A stretch of DNA of 44,610 bases, taken from the NCBI GenBank assembly GCA_900547835.1, contig URIJ01000001.1:1-44610 (forward strand), in the 5' to 3' direction. The notes below the pieces were generated by a model. The model did no database searches. It was not told where the DNA came from and saw only the letters and a list, made by a program, of their open reading frames with translations. The position numbers and the translations under genes are program-made. Shown here one piece after another: positions 4,963 through 30,446 of this stretch; position 1 is the stretch's first letter, and each line of letters begins with the position of its first letter. Source of the DNA: an uncultured Collinsella sp. Its GTDB lineage: Bacteria; Actinomycetota; Coriobacteriia; Coriobacteriales; Coriobacteriaceae.

Positions 4963-5013
4963 TTCCTTCGCTTTGGGACACGCAAGGTTTAGACCTTAGC
5001 TGCTCAACACCTT

Positions 5014-5090
5014 CGGGACGTGGCGCAGTTTGGTAGCGCGCCTGCTTTGGGAGCAGGATGTCGCAGGTTCAAATCCTGTCGTCCCGACCA
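5014..5090 (+). tRNA. tRNA-Pro(TGG)
   Basis: CGGGACG acceptor / CGTCCCG-ACCA; anticodon arm CCTGC-TT TGG GA-GCAGG; GTTCAAATC T-loop. Confidence 0.97.
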
Positions 5091-5096
5091 TATCTT

Positions 5097-5170
5097 GCGG
5101 GCGTAGTTCAATGGTAGAACCCCAGCCTTCCAAGCTGATGACGCGGGTTCGATTCCCGTCGCCCGCTCCA
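5097..5170 (+). tRNA. tRNA-Gly(TCC)
   Basis: GCGGGCG / CGCCCGC-TCCA; anticodon arm CAGC-CT TCC AA-GCTG; GTTCGATTC. Confidence 0.97.
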
Positions 5171-5182
5171 TAGGATATCTTT

Positions 5183-5218
5183 AACGGCTTTGGCTCCTTT
5201 TGGTGCCAGAGCCGTTTT
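5183..5218 (+). terminator. Intrinsic terminator after the tRNA pair
   Basis: AACGGCTTTGGC...GCCAGAGCCGTT stem followed by TT. Confidence 0.65.
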
Positions 5219-5250
5219 CATATACATGCCGGGGACCCCACATCCCCTCC

Positions 5251-5321
5251 TAAGTTGCGGTGAAATAGTTCCTGGATTAGCCGCAAAAGCTGTTATCCAG
5301 GAACTATTTCACCGCAACTTA
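5251..5321. repeat. Palindromic REP/MITE-like repeat, copy 1
   Basis: 27-bp perfect inverted arms TAAGTTGCGGTGAAATAGTTCCTGGAT (5251-5277) / ATCCAGGAACTATTTCACCGCAACTTA (5295-5321). Confidence 0.95.
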
Positions 5322-5382
5322 TTGAGGCCGAGCGGGCTGGGTCGATGATGGGTTCTGTTGTCGAGAAGATGAAGACAGCCGG

Positions 5383-6390
5383 TCAGGAGTCTGCGTAGGG
5401 TTTTGTGGTTGGTATACCGTAGCCGCGCATCATGGAGCCGAACGCTTTGACATCGTAGGTGTCTGAGAGCTTGAAATGAATGACGTTGTGGCCCATGGCA
5501 CGCAGGTTCGTGTCGCGCATGAGGGCAGCTCGATAGGTTTTTGCCGCAGTATGTTCCGGATCATTTTGGGCATCGTCCTCAAACTTGCCTAGTCCATGCA
5601 GCTCAGCCAGCATCCAAGAGCCGTTTGGCATCTGCCAGCCGTAATCTGCCAAATAATAGCCGGCGTTTCCCGGTCGAGTGATTTCAACCTGAAGTTCGGG
5701 AGCGGCAACTCCCGCCAGAATCATTGCCGCCCGTGCTTCGGATTCTCCACCGTTATCCGATCTGCCATCCATGTGTTCAAAAACGTCAAATGCGCGCGCG
5801 ATGCCGTGCAGTCCGCGGCAGTTCCTTTGTGCATATGCACGCAATTCTTCACGCTCGACACCGTACTCACGAGCCAACCCGTCGACATAGCCTAGTGCAT
5901 ATCGAAAAGCGTTAGTTCGGGCGATGTCGACCACCGTGCGATATGGATTCGTTAACGTAAAAGGACCGAGCTGCCATACGTCGCCCGGCCGCCAGCGTCG
6001 GTATTCAACGAATTCGTACATATCGCGTCTGGTGGAACGCGGCAACAGCACTTGCACCTTGTCGAGAAGCGAATATGCAGAACCGATGCCATAGAGCAGT
6101 GCCGCCGTTGCTCCACAAAACACGGCATTCGGTTCAACGACCGCAATAGCGGATGCCAATTGAAAGATGCGATCTTCGACGCCGAGGTCATTCCAATACG
6201 CGGGATCAGCGTAGACATGGTTGTAGAGTCGAATAATCATCTCTTTTTGCATGAGCGCGTAGGCACAGCGTTCATCCCATTTTTTGGTAGCTACAAACAG
6301 GTGCCCGCCATGATGGGCCTCGAATAACCGGAAGAACAGCTCTAATTGCGGTTTGGTACAGCGTTTATCATGACTCATTTTCGACCCCAT
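5383..6390 (-). CDS. Actinobacterial AbiEi-like protein with C-terminal DUF559/Vsr-like PD-(D/E)XK-type domain (function unknown)
   Basis: 335-aa ORF of visibly lower GC; motifs AVFCGATAALLYG, TNPYRTVVDIAR, SDNGGESEAR, YLADYGW...MLAELHGLGKF, RDTNLRAMGHNVIH resemble the SHxSAAxLxG / TSPxRTxxD / SESxxES / DxxW...ExDG / RDxxLxxxGW pattern of this family. Confidence 0.65.
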   Translation of the reverse strand: MGSKMSHDKRCTKPQLELFFRLFEAHHGGHLFVATKKWDERCAYALMQKEMIIRLYNHVYADPAYWNDLGVEDRIFQLASAIAVVEPNAVFCGATAALLYGIGSAYSLLDKVQVLLPRSTRRDMYEFVEYRRWRPGDVWQLGPFTLTNPYRTVVDIARTNAFRYALGYVDGLAREYGVEREELRAYAQRNCRGLHGIARAFDVFEHMDGRSDNGGESEARAAMILAGVAAPELQVEITRPGNAGYYLADYGWQMPNGSWMLAELHGLGKFEDDAQNDPEHTAAKTYRAALMRDTNLRAMGHNVIHFKLSDTYDVKAFGSMMRGYGIPTTKPYADS

Positions 6391-6562
6391 GGTCTCGAGG
6401 GGGAGTGAATGACACTACGCTATCCCATATTTGGCCCGCCTGACCTTGCCATGAACTGACCAAAAGCTTGACGGGGCAGGTCAGAGTCATGAGTCGTAGC
6501 CAAACATATCGGCAAACGGTTGATTAGTGCCCCTCGGCGGCACTAAAAACCACCCTTACAGA

Positions 6563-6608
6563 AAGTTGCGGTGGAATAGTTCCTGAAAGGCTCGAATAAG
6601 CCTAAATC
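6563..6608. repeat. Palindromic repeat copy 2, left arm and spacer (split by the IS)
   Basis: AAGTTGCGGTGGAATAGTTCCTG followed by a 23-nt spacer ending ATC, where the IS begins. Confidence 0.9.
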
Positions 6609-7907
6609 GGGGGTGCGGACGATTTCTTGGACCGCGCCTAGGCGTATCCAAGCTTCCTGCGGTACTCCATCGGGCTCAGCCACCCGAGGGACTTCTTGAT
6701 CCGCTCCTCACGATAGTACACGAGGTAGGCCTCGAGCCTTCCCATGAACTCCTCGGCCGTCACGCCCTCCCAGTCCCTGTAGTGGAAGAACTCGTTCTTG
6801 AGGCGCCCGAAGAAGCCCTCGCAGGCCGAGTTGTCCGGGCTGCAGCCCTTCGCGGACATGCTCCTGATCAGGCCGTTCTCCTCGCAGATCCCGATCCACT
6901 CCGGCCAGCGGTAGTGGCCGCCCCGGTCCGAGTGGATCGTCGTGCGCGCGCCCGCCGGCCTCGCCGCGCAGGCCTTGAGCAGGCTCGAGTTCGCGAGGCG
7001 CTTGTCGGGGTGCAGCCCGATCGACCAGGCGACGGGCATCCCGTCGAAGCAGTCGACGATCGGGCTCAGGTAGACCTTCTCGCCGCCCGGGAGCCTGAAC
7101 TCGGTGATGTCGGTGAGCCACAGCCGGTTGGGCTCGTCGGCGTGGAAATTCCTGCTCACGAGGTTCTCCGGCGCCTTGGAGACCTCGCCGGCGTAGGAGC
7201 TGTAGCCCCGGGCGCGCCTCTTGTTGTAGACGACCTCGAGGCCCTCCTCGCGCATCACGCGGGCCACGCGCTTCTCGCTGGCGCGGACCCCCTCGCGGCG
7301 CAGGCGCGCCCAGACGGTGCGGTACCCCCAGCACCCCGAGCCCTCGCGGAAGATGCGCACCACGCGGTCGCGTATGTCGGCGTCGCGGTCGCGCGGCGCG
7401 GCGACGCGGGGCCTCCAGTACTCATAGGAGCTCTTCGATATCCTCAAGAAACCTGTGATCGAGCGGAGGGGCAGGGCGGTCGCCCGCCTCAATCTCTCGC
7501 CGAGCTCGCACTTGCTCCTGTTCGAGATCGAAGCCGGGTCCCACCCTTCCGCTTTTAGGTCGGCCAACACCGCCCTGAGCAGCAGGTTCTCTATCTGGTC
7601 CTCGTTGAGCCCGGCGAGCGGGCCGGTCGCCGGCGGGGCGTAGGTCGACTTGTCGGGGCCCAAGCTGGCCTCCTTCCGTGGCGGTTTCCTCGCCCCGATT
7701 CTACAGCGCGCCCCGGTGTAGCTGTGCGGGAGGTGCCCCGTCGCCCACTTCTTGGCCGCGCCCACCGAGACCCCCGCGAACTTCGCGGCGGCGGTCGGCC
7801 CCATGCCGTCCTCCGTCGCCAGGAGGAAGAGCTCGACCTTCTCCCTGCTGTACATGCGAACCTCCAGTCCGGACCGCTTCACGGTCCAACTTTCTGTCCG
7901 CACCCCC
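6609..7907 (-). mobile_element. IS3-family insertion sequence, 1299 bp, with 3-bp target duplication ATC
   Basis: Imperfect 26-bp IRs GGGGGTGCGGAC-N6-TTGGACCG at both ends; ATC at 6606-6608 and 7908-7910; encloses a DDE transposase. Confidence 0.9.
6638..7855 (-). CDS. IS3-family DDE transposase in a single reading frame (OrfA+OrfB fused)
   Basis: MYSREKV HTH-like start after GGAGG; WGYRTVW, NRLWLTDITEF, IHSDRGGHY, DNSACEGFFGRLKNE, SPMEYR. Confidence 0.92.
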   Translation of the reverse strand: MYSREKVELFLLATEDGMGPTAAAKFAGVSVGAAKKWATGHLPHSYTGARCRIGARKPPRKEASLGPDKSTYAPPATGPLAGLNEDQIENLLLRAVLADLKAEGWDPASISNRSKCELGERLRRATALPLRSITGFLRISKSSYEYWRPRVAAPRDRDADIRDRVVRIFREGSGCWGYRTVWARLRREGVRASEKRVARVMREEGLEVVYNKRRARGYSSYAGEVSKAPENLVSRNFHADEPNRLWLTDITEFRLPGGEKVYLSPIVDCFDGMPVAWSIGLHPDKRLANSSLLKACAARPAGARTTIHSDRGGHYRWPEWIGICEENGLIRSMSAKGCSPDNSACEGFFGRLKNEFFHYRDWEGVTAEEFMGRLEAYLVYYREERIKKSLGWLSPMEYRRKLGYA

Positions 7908-7944
7908 ATCCAGGAACTATTTCACCGCAACTTAAGAGGGGATG
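7908..7944. repeat. Palindromic repeat copy 2, right arm plus outer extension
   Basis: ATCCAGGAACTATTTCACCGCAACTTAAGAGGGGATG is the reverse complement of 5241-5277 with one mismatch. Confidence 0.9.
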
Positions 7945-7978
7945 GGGCTGAGTGGCGGGCGATGCCGTTGCCTGTCGG

Positions 7979-8455
7979 TTAGTGGCGGGATTGGTGGCGG
8001 AGCTTGTCGATGGTGGAGTCGGTGCTTCGGCTGCGGGCTTCGGCGGCGCGGTCGCGGGCGTCGGCGGCGGTTTGGCGCTGGCGGCGGTAGTCGATCATGC
8101 CTTGGATGATGGGCTTGCCAAAGCTCACGACATCATCGTTGTAGATGGCGGTTCGGGCTGCGAGGAGGCAGTCGGTAAAGTCCATATGGGTCTTGCCAAA
8201 GAGTTTGACGGCAAGGGCGACAACGGTGGGCTCGTCGACCATGACGTCATCGAGCAGCCTTTTCATGGCCGCAGCAATCTCAACGCGGGGAACCTTATAG
8301 ACGTCGCGCAGCGTGACCACGACGCGCGTGATGATCTCGGGGTAGACGCGAGCGGTGCGTGTGGCGATGACCTTGGCAGCGCGAGGTGACAGAACTTCGT
8401 CGTCATTAAGCAGATAGCGCAGGATTACGGTCTCGTCGATGATGGTGCTACTCAT
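7979..8455 (-). CDS. PIN-domain (VapC-like) protein, putative toxin
   Basis: IIDETVILRYLLND N-terminus and MDFTDCLL C-terminal PIN acidic motifs; start overlaps the end of the upstream antitoxin-like gene. Confidence 0.7.
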   Translation of the reverse strand: MSSTIIDETVILRYLLNDDEVLSPRAAKVIATRTARVYPEIITRVVVTLRDVYKVPRVEIAAAMKRLLDDVMVDEPTVVALAVKLFGKTHMDFTDCLLAARTAIYNDDVVSFGKPIIQGMIDYRRQRQTAADARDRAAEARSRSTDSTIDKLRHQSRH

Positions 8456-8771
8456 GGATATCTACTTCCTCGGGACCCAAAATCGAATCGTCGCTTTCTG
8501 TGGCAAGATACTCAATCCAGGCATTGCGCTCCTCGGAGCGGCGATTGGGGTCCCCATATGCTTTGAGCGATCCATAGGCGGCGGTGCCGTCCTTTGAGCG
8601 CACGGCGACCGGCTGAAAGGGGAGCTTGCGCATCAAAATACTCTGCGCGACAAATAGACGGACAGCCTCGGCGAGCGATGTGCCCATGGCGTCGTAGAGA
8701 CGTTCGGCATGCTGCTTGTCTTCCTCGCGAATGCGCACCTGCAGGATGGCTCGTTTTTGAGTCGATGACAT
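8448..8771 (-). CDS. RelB/DinJ-family ribbon-helix-helix antitoxin
   Basis: ILQVRIREEDKQHAERLYDAMGTSLAEAVRLFVAQSILMRKLPF is a typical RelB/DinJ pattern; GGAGG RBS on the minus strand. Confidence 0.8.
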   Translation of the reverse strand: MSSTQKRAILQVRIREEDKQHAERLYDAMGTSLAEAVRLFVAQSILMRKLPFQPVAVRSKDGTAAYGSLKAYGDPNRRSEERNAWIEYLATESDDSILGPEEVDIHE

Positions 8772-8818
8772 CACTGGCCTCCCTTAATGAGCGTGCAATT
8801 TGAATAGTCAAATACAGC

Positions 8819-30331: not shown

Positions 30332-30343
30332 GCCACCCTTATC

Positions 30344-30410
30344 AGTTGCGGTGAAATAGTTCCTGTTTTTGGGGTCTTGCAGCCTAAACAAGAACTATTC
30401 CACCGCAACT
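30344..30410. repeat. Palindromic repeat copy 3 (solo) between selB and selC
   Basis: AGTTGCGGTGAAATAGTTCCTG-23 nt-CAAGAACTATTCCACCGCAACT. Confidence 0.92.
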
Positions 30411-30446
30411 TCTTGCTCGTCTTTTTGGGATGGGGCCTGTTTGGTT

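Follow-up and report, generated by a model that had tools for sequence, protein, structure and literature searches.

What ties a single protein gene to the two copies of a dispersed palindrome that enclose it? The question arises from a locus of an uncultured Collinsella sp., where an open reading frame (ORF) for a protein of 335 amino acids (aa), ORF335, lies between two palindromes of about 70 base pairs (bp), P1 and P2, shortly downstream of a tRNA-Gly gene. We analyzed the 44,610-nucleotide (nt) stretch of DNA that carries the locus (hereafter, the window), which is contig C1 of assembly G000 (2.04 Mb, 238 contigs). Other genomes used for comparison carry G labels, and L labels denote loci from relatives or public records. 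An earlier reading of the window, referred to here as the original prediction, had noted a gene enclosed by two palindromes of roughly 69 bp and another, solitary palindrome elsewhere in the window. Both observations hold, P2 being split by an insertion sequence (IS). Our analysis indicates that the partnership between gene and repeat is real, non-random, and apparently undescribed, and a functional link between the protein and the repeat, of whatever nature, is in our judgment very likely. The arrangement may amount to an analog of the repetitive extragenic palindromic (REP) sequences and REP-associated tyrosine transposases (RAYTs) of Proteobacteria that is built on an unrelated nuclease, a reading on which our confidence is evenly poised.

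Homologs of ORF335 and their flanking palindromes

G000 encodes a paralog of ORF335 (contig C178, 379 aa, 28% identity), on either side of which lie doublets of another palindrome, TGTCTCGATCTGTAAC...GTTACAGATCGAGACA. This second repeat (family 2) gives 89 arm hits at about 22 loci in G000, often in tandem clusters of two to five units with a period of ~80 nt, and its distribution covers the same 57 of 61 Collinsella genomes as that of family 1, the repeat that flanks ORF335. Members of family 2 occur on contigs C12, C32, C39, C71, C78, C178, and others of G000, and the number of units at one site differs between species. Among the first seven paralog or homolog loci inspected in relatives, six carry flanking palindromes of their own, and the seventh has a 23-nt inverted repeat only.

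When 151 genomes of the class were searched with a profile, the protein family was recovered in 56 of them. We assembled 60 full-length, non-orthologous homolog loci, taking every such hit from other genera and some of the paralogs from within the genus; this set is hand-picked and non-random. For each locus, 12.9 kb was fetched (L075 and L045 are cut by contig ends), hairpins were called by one fixed rule, and a locus was scored as positive if similar hairpins lay within 600 nt of both gene ends. Other non-overlapping ORFs of 250-500 aa from the same loci (n = 152) served as controls. At least one hairpin flanks 47 of the 60 homologs and 63 of the 152 controls, and hairpins on both sides are seen for 28 and 7, respectively. 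Similar hairpins on both sides distinguish 24/60 homologs from 1/152 controls (Fisher p = 2.6e-14, a value computed over related, non-independent loci). The 24 positive loci come from 19 genomes and represent 17 unrelated palindrome families, and a further locus, L075, failed the similarity cut-off by a single match. These counts bear out the expectation in the original prediction that homologs would each be flanked by a cognate palindrome family.

The sole positive control, an ORF at positions 9511-10659 of L064, aligns to the profile of the protein family (hhalign probability 54%, E 1.3e-4) and carries an EYDG motif; as judged from this alignment, it is probably a distant family member. Other cognate families are dispersed in their own genomes, with 9 copies in G222, 15 in G097, and copies at about 7 loci in G198.

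We consider it highly improbable that ORF335 came to be enclosed by two members of a widespread intergenic repeat through chance alone, or that the arrangement is an assembly artifact. Some chance bracketing is to be expected, given that ~44 copies in roughly 2000 intergenic regions would place, by our estimate, about one gene per genome between two copies, and other genes flanked on both sides do exist in G000. Nevertheless, the arrangement recurs in 80 public Collinsella records from independent assemblies, recurs for the paralog with another repeat family, and recurs in other genera with further families.

Predicted architecture of the ORF335 protein

ORF335 itself matches no model in Pfam (E ≤ 0.1) or NCBIfam. 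The PADLOC model for AbiEi matches residues 77-189 (1.2e-7), and a large protein collection yielded 114 relatives at E ≤ 1e-5. Distant homologs combine an AbiEi domain (PF13338 or PF09407) with PF04480 (DUF559) or PF18741. The two largest clusters of close ORF335 relatives hold more than 8000 member sequences each in public data.

An AlphaFold (AF2) model of the protein was obtained with a mean predicted local distance difference test score (pLDDT) of 87.7 and a predicted template modeling score (pTM) of 0.83. Foldseek searches of this model against the PDB gave nothing at E ≤ 0.001, and the best weak matches were AbiEi (6y8q, probability 0.99) and then Rv2827c (1zel). In a further structural search (VIA), residues 13-208 resembled AbiEi 6y8q (Z 11.5, 178 aligned residues, root-mean-square deviation (rmsd) 7.2) and, at Z 7.3, 1zel. 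For the C-terminal part, about residues 211 to 327, the matches were the Vsr endonuclease 1cw0 (Z 9.8, rmsd 3.0), homing endonuclease I-Bth0305I (catalytic domain, 3r3p, Z 9.7), and 3hrl, a DUF559 protein (Z 8.3). A comparison of the family profile with PDB sequences found no match at E ≤ 1. The model-based matches thereby support a protein composed of an AbiEi-like winged-helix half and a Vsr/DUF559-like nuclease half, and the assignment to AbiEi-like and DUF559/PD-(D/E)XK proteins made in the original prediction is upheld by PADLOC, by the Pfam domains of homologs, and by the predicted fold. Its statement that no HUH or DDE domain is present likewise agrees with the Pfam, NCBIfam, and fold searches. 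PMC3424549 places Vsr, DUF559, and a group I intron homing endonuclease in one PD-(D/E)XK clade.

An alignment of 24 family sequences revealed invariant residues E216, S217, R220, P231, L233, Q234, D249, W252, G266, K269, and R292, and E263 is nearly invariant. In ORF335 and its orthologs, the family motif A-E-x-D-G-x-x-K-Y takes the form AELHGLGKF, with His265 in place of the aspartate.

Family 1 palindromes across the genome and the genus

We searched G000 for family 1 by using a 15-nt core with up to two mismatches. The 89 arms recovered resolve into 41 complete palindromes and 7 unpaired arms; the latter comprise the two halves of P2, single arms from two copies whose other arm has diverged, and three apparent chance matches. 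Members are about 70 bp long, and 38 of the 41 complete copies are exactly equal in length. The foot of the stem, AAGTTGCGGTGAAATA, is nearly constant among these 38, with base pairing at positions 6-13 and 15-18 in 94-100% of copies. Variants are seen at positions 19-22, where 15-16 copies are altered on both sides of the stem, and the loop is unconstrained. When folded as DNA, P1 reaches -34.7 kcal/mol (z = -11.5), and none of 200 shuffled sequences is as stable. The 23-nt arm of the palindrome occurs six times in the window, where 0 occurrences are expected from 100 shuffles.

The inverted repeat at the outer ends of the unit spans 40 nt with 95% complementarity (5238-5277 and 7908-7947). 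The original prediction described these ends as 37-bp terminal inverted repeats; an inverted repeat does exist, but it does not define ends specific to this element. A 13-nt extension resembling CCCATCCCCTC belongs to the family and lies on one side of a copy: 17 of the 38 equal-length copies have it, against 1 in a control with the wrong orientation. Because this extension recurs among family members, the 40-nt repeat is simply two family 1 palindromes facing outward.

Family 1 was found in 57 of the 61 Collinsella genomes searched, with 23-85 arms in each, and a reversed-pattern control returned 0. The copies that were read individually to check for an extragenic position sit after gene ends. 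Rfam models applied to positions 5000-8000 returned only tRNAs above threshold and no palindrome family; sub-threshold matches of microRNA models to the palindrome were taken to be generic hairpin matches. Likewise, family 1 is not among the palindromic candidate RNAs reported from gut microbiomes in the available part of PMC8040213.

The solo copy at C12:11735 is inside uninterrupted matches in all five relatives compared (85-97% identity), and the site at C23:10846 holds a different repeat in G004 and G016. Among the two contigs compared with five relatives, no clean empty site for a solo palindrome was found.

At least one further dispersed family exists, in that palindromes with a GGGGAC / GTCCCC core recur in many loci of the Collinsella family; examples are present in L104 and L105 (G004 and G016), L041 (12222-12284), L063, L069 (3384-3450), L073, and L084 (664-720).

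Inheritance of the ORF335 unit

Close orthologs of ORF335 (81-97% identity) were found in 22 of the 36 same-genus genomes of a first draw, and one of 23 other genera contained distant relatives only. Across several hundred Collinsella genomes, 576 loci encode a relative. Both palindromes are present in 9 of the 11 orthologous loci fetched, the other two being cut by contig ends. Among the 80 closest loci in public records (96-100% identity), at least 330 nt of flanking sequence is available upstream in 72 and downstream in 68, and the palindrome is intact in 70 and 66 of these, respectively. Three of the four missing palindromes (both at L167 and the downstream one at L148) are represented by a half palindrome beside an IS3 end, and the fourth (upstream at L151) by a half palindrome with no IS end. 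P2 is intact, with no IS, in relatives L002-L005, L007, and L008.

In every orthologous locus with sufficient flanking sequence, the tRNA-Pro/tRNA-Gly pair (Rfam tRNA scores of 70.2 and 69.1 bits) adjoins the unit on the left. The same tRNA-Gly site and orientation are seen in 78 of the 80 closest loci, the remaining two being unreadable, and the site is also retained in more distant orthologs. In several species, the unit is absent, eroded, or inverted. In G003 and G005, a focA-like gene comes directly after tRNA-Gly with no palindrome. In G019, 12 nt of arm plus extension are left beside the PIN-like gene, and in G024 and G031 the contig stops in an IS3 copy within the loop of the first palindrome. 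The L010-L012 clade (81-84% identity) carries everything between the 40-nt repeats in the opposite orientation, and the outside flanks are unchanged; loose ends of RNA-library contigs from run X19 fit this inverted form.

The species that lack the unit (L019, L020, and L021, corresponding to G005, G003, and G019) carry an inverted partial copy of the tRNA-Gly 3' end downstream, and G005 has an additional direct partial copy after the inverted one. These partial copies look like leftovers of integration at the tRNA.

The gene occurs once in G000, and the bases outside the 40-nt repeat, GCCGGGGAC and CTGAGTGGC, form no direct repeat that would represent a target duplication. No sign of transposition of the unit was found among the loci compared. 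We rejected a classical insertion sequence or transposon: the 40-nt inverted repeat is present, but there is no target duplication, a single copy, and one locus. The proposal that the unit is mobile and IS-like must be abandoned on the same grounds. Instead, the unit is single-copy, occupies one site, has been lost or eroded in some species, and has been flipped once or a few times. ORF335 could well be a vertically inherited, single-copy partner gene of the dispersed family 1, a view that we hold no more firmly than its opposite.

A proposed mechanism and its alternatives

A private repeat family for each paralog, a conserved hairpin foot, the fusion of a DNA-binding domain to a nuclease domain, and a homing-endonuclease fold together lead us to infer that the protein recognizes and cuts its own palindrome and takes part in spreading or maintaining the repeats. 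In the mechanism that we envisage, the AbiEi-type winged-helix half would recognize the conserved foot of the hairpin as duplex DNA, as an extruded cruciform, or as a single-strand hairpin, and the Vsr/DUF559-type PD-(D/E)XK domain would nick or cut at this foot. Repair of the break from another copy, in a homing-like manner, would duplicate, homogenize, or move palindromes, and the same process would hold the gene between two of them. In principle, a break in a solo copy that is repaired from the gene-bearing doublet could copy the gene in. The upstream palindrome is probably also the operator of ORF335, and recombination between flanking copies could account for the observed deletion and inversion. 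The paralog of G000 and homologs across the class would share this kind of partnership with private palindromes. More generally, we propose tentatively, with somewhat less than even confidence, that AbiEi-DUF559 proteins form another class of repeat-partner enzymes beside the HUH/Y1 RAYTs, with which they share no ancestry. As structure- or sequence-specific nucleases, they would create, copy, or homogenize their own palindromes via break repair and stay between two of them, and the class would span Actinomycetota.

A series of observations weighs against this proposal. In the class-wide comparison, 36 of the 60 homolog loci fail to show the arrangement, with 23 having a hairpin but no similar pair (19 of them on one side) and 13 having no hairpin. 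The comparable solo copies of family 1 are old or fixed, residing at the same positions in species that are 85-97% identical, and no clean new insertion was seen. Five genomes that are 92-99% complete (G003, G019, G024, G031, and G036) carry 34-73 family 1 arms with no ortholog found, and G031 gave no match to the whole protein family with ORF335 as the query. With regard to the suggestion that repeat copy number tracks the gene, genomes with an ortholog (n = 22) average 63.5 arms and those without (n = 14) average 38.4, but the latter value becomes 53.8 (n = 10) once four repeat-free genomes are excluded. The remaining difference is small and confounded by phylogeny. In favor of the proposal, the four Collinsella genomes without family 1 are also without the ortholog; they lack family 2 as well and probably represent one deep branch, such that their co-absence counts once at most.

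The active site provides another adverse point. Because the acidic residue of the E-x-D-G motif is a histidine in ORF335 and its orthologs, this clade could be catalytically altered or dead. The protein might instead bind DNA without cutting it, serving as an autoregulator, a global regulator, a nucleoid organizer, or a hairpin caretaker, with the palindromes as operators or binding sites, a nuclease-like domain that is inactive or has another role, and repeats that spread by other means. Operators were also the alternative offered in the original prediction. AbiEi represses its own promoter by binding inverted repeats there, the N-terminal half of ORF335 has the AbiEi fold, and P1 lies 173 nt upstream of the ORF335 start codon. 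The histidine substitution and the persistence of repeats in genomes lacking the gene also fit this explanation. However, an operator is needed upstream alone, yet cognate hairpins occur at both ends in the 24 positive homolog loci and in essentially all orthologs. Moreover, about 40 dispersed sites, located after gene ends where inspected, would be unusual for a regulon. The nuclease core (E216, D249, E263, and K269) is conserved across homologs with 22-29% identity, which favors a functional active site among family members. We consider binding without cleavage to be unlikely, although it deserves serious attention.

Family 1 also encloses genes that have no evident relation to ORF335, which again speaks against a dedicated partnership. 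In G000, a GntR-like gene, an oxidoreductase-like gene, and a segment of two genes each have its palindromes on both sides. G035, G028, and G004 (L101-L103) carry ~3.6 kb of DNA that contains a helicase-like ORF of ~1000 aa and is enclosed by two palindromes, and the corresponding site (C23:14118-14182) is a single palindrome in G000 and G013. Because unrelated genes and this variable segment are bracketed too, family 1 repeats are general sites of cassette gain or loss.

From this perspective, AbiEi-DUF559 genes could be frequent passive cargo, perhaps with defense- or toxin-antitoxin-like roles and no biochemical link to palindromes that are recombination-prone or moved by another enzyme. 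The bracketed genes and the helicase-like cassette favor this possibility, as does the location of the unit in a variable region beside a tRNA and a RelB/PIN-like gene pair. Candidates for the other enzyme exist in the form of two IS200-like Y1_Tnp (PF01797) genes in G000 (C153:686-970 and C22:6874-7200), and such genes are also present in the three palindrome-bearing relatives searched and not in the palindrome-free G015. Even so, no family 1 or family 2 palindrome was found on the G000 contigs that carry the Y1_Tnp genes or within 1.5 kb of Y1 genes in the three relatives, and a RAYT (PF01797) was rejected as the mobilizer on this basis, with action in trans being possible. Passive carriage would also not be expected to give each paralog a private family, as seen for 17 families, two of them within G000, and the one positive among the 152 control ORFs is itself probably a family member. 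Taken together, we find the passive-cargo explanation quite unlikely.

The two Y1_Tnp genes are conserved in relatives, and their products show an HxH motif and, at the C terminus, an additional tail resembling a helix-turn-helix.

Relation to known systems

RAYTs are relatives of HUH/Y1 single-strand transposases (PF01797). The REP/REPIN-RAYT systems (REPtrons) of Proteobacteria, in which REPINs are doublets of REP sequences, resemble the Collinsella system in having a single-copy, vertically inherited gene between short palindromic repeats, a repeat dispersed in tens of copies, several gene-repeat pairs per genome with a family for each, and IS elements that insert into the repeats. The parallel with RAYTs drawn in the original prediction is valid at the level of architecture, given the cognate palindromes around homologs. 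In contrast, ORF335 combines AbiEi-like and Vsr/DUF559 PD-(D/E)XK parts and has no HUH/Tyr motif or Y1_Tnp Pfam match. The repeats here are 65-130 bp rather than 20-40 bp, with a variable loop and upper stem, and their consensus foot, atAAGTTGCGGTG, lacks a GTAG or CGTC tag. Because the enzyme is unrelated, the repeats are longer, and the tag is missing, the Collinsella system is not a member of the REP/RAYT class, and the chemistry of any mobilization must differ. This comparison draws in part on PMC3116915, PMC3337134, PMC5581495, and the RAREFAN preprint, and the tag at the 5' foot of REPs is used partly as defined in PMC3733652.

The AbiE type IV toxin-antitoxin systems share the AbiEi fold (6y8q and 1zel) with the N-terminal half of ORF335. 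However, the unit contains no gene for AbiEii (a DUF1814 nucleotidyltransferase), and ORF335 is its sole ORF. The neighbors are tRNAs, the IS3 transposase, and the RelB/PIN-like pair, and a nuclease domain is fused to the ORF335 C terminus. The missing AbiEii gene leads us to exclude an AbiE toxin-antitoxin system.

The Vsr/DUF559 endonucleases, including I-Bth0305I, are similar to ORF335 in the fold of its C-terminal domain, and homologs of ORF335 carry PF04480. The homing endonuclease of the same fold is a precedent for break-driven copying. Points of difference are that PF04480 is undetected in ORF335 itself, that the aspartate of E-x-D-G is a histidine, and that there is no intron or intein context. 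We also considered, and dropped, an integron attC interpretation and a Correia-like miniature inverted-repeat transposable element, as the copies are dispersed rather than arrayed, the loops vary between copies, and no transposase partner is evident.

Full-text literature searches found no description linking DUF559/AbiEi-like proteins to flanking dispersed palindromes. According to a table of PMC9881135, DUF559 domain-containing proteins are enriched (odds ratio 14.3) among predicted targets of programmed inversion, which may be a trace of the same gene-palindrome arrangement.

The pairing across at least 17 repeat families joins two puzzles and makes both testable. Actinomycetota genomes abound in DUF559 and AbiEi-like "antitoxin domain" proteins; to our knowledge, this large family has no known role, and the origin of dispersed palindromes outside Proteobacteria is largely unexplained. 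Were the nuclease to drive the copying of repeats, the system would parallel REP/RAYT by convergence, with different chemistry, and might be a source of sequence- or structure-specific nucleases. It would also explain the origin of dispersed palindromes in Actinomycetota genomes, including those of Collinsella, an abundant genus of the human gut. The repeats mark cassette gain and loss, inversion, and IS insertion in this major gut commensal.

Anatomy of the locus and its neighbors

The features of the locus are collected in Table 1. Subtraction of the IS3-family element and one copy of ATC leaves a unit of 1408 bp, in keeping with the IS-sized unit just past a tRNA terminator that the original prediction described; it follows tRNA-Gly and a terminator-like hairpin. 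The GC content of ORF335 is 53.3%, compared to 63.0% for the window and 60.2% for the genome.

Table 1. Features of the ORF335 locus and the solo palindrome of the window.
Feature	Position	Strand	Basis or description
tRNA-Pro(tgg)	5014-5090	+	ARAGORN; Rfam tRNA
tRNA-Gly(tcc)	5097-5170	+	ARAGORN; Rfam tRNA
GC-rich hairpin and T-run, terminator-like	5184-5218	+	3' of the tRNAs; read from the sequence
Outer 13-nt extension of P1, CCACATCCCCTCC	5238-5250		Pairs with 7935-7947
Palindrome P1, family 1	5251-5321		27-nt arms, 17-nt loop, 100% complementary
ORF335, 335 aa	5383-6390	-	Predicted AbiEi-like N-terminal half and Vsr/DUF559-like PD-(D/E)XK C-terminal domain
P2 left arm and loop, family 1	6563-6608 (arm 6563-6590)		Ends at the ATC duplicated by the IS
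IS3-family element, 1299 bp	6609-7907	-	Inside the P2 loop; transposase ORF 6638-7909
P2 right arm	7906-7934		7908-7934: 27 nt, 100% identical to 5295-5321
Outer extension of P2, AGAGGGGATGGGG	7935-7947		Inverted partner of 5238-5250
Solo family 1 palindrome	30343-30411		12 nt past the stop of a selB-like ORF; 57 nt ahead of tRNA-SeC

The IS3-family element has 26-nt terminal inverted repeats (77% complementary) and a transposase that matches NF033516 at 6.1e-88 as well as the Pfam domains rve, HTH_21, and rve_2. Its insertion is accompanied by a 3-bp ATC duplication, read from the sequence at 6606-6608 and 7908-7910. The same IS ends are present in family 1 loops of at least seven other assemblies (G024 [L018], G031 [L017], L117, L148, L159, L167, and L184), and L167 has the IS in both flanking palindromes. 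The position within the loop differs among G000, G024, and G031, where junctions were read, and the offsets of the IS ends also differ in L148, L159, and L184. By analogy, insertion of this element looks loop-targeted. IS3-family elements of the IS1397 and ISKpn1 type reportedly insert into REP loops of enterobacteria (Tobes and Pareja 2006). The element in the P2 loop is similar in this respect, whereas the repeat that it enters belongs to a separate, undescribed family from an actinobacterial host, and the likeness concerns the IS rather than ORF335.

Sequencing runs were examined as assembled contigs, which break at palindromes, such that uncovered parts carry no meaning. RNA-library contigs from three runs span ORF335 (5332-6600), each as a separate contig that ends at the palindromes. 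These contigs are a weak hint that ORF335 is transcribed; DNA carry-over is possible, and the ends are assembly breaks at repeats.

Directly adjoining the unit on the minus strand (7979-8774) are a RelB-like antitoxin gene (PF04221, 2.5e-6) and an ORF of 158 aa that matches PIN weakly (E 0.057); the two overlap by 8 nt. In G003 and G005, this pair is missing along with the unit.

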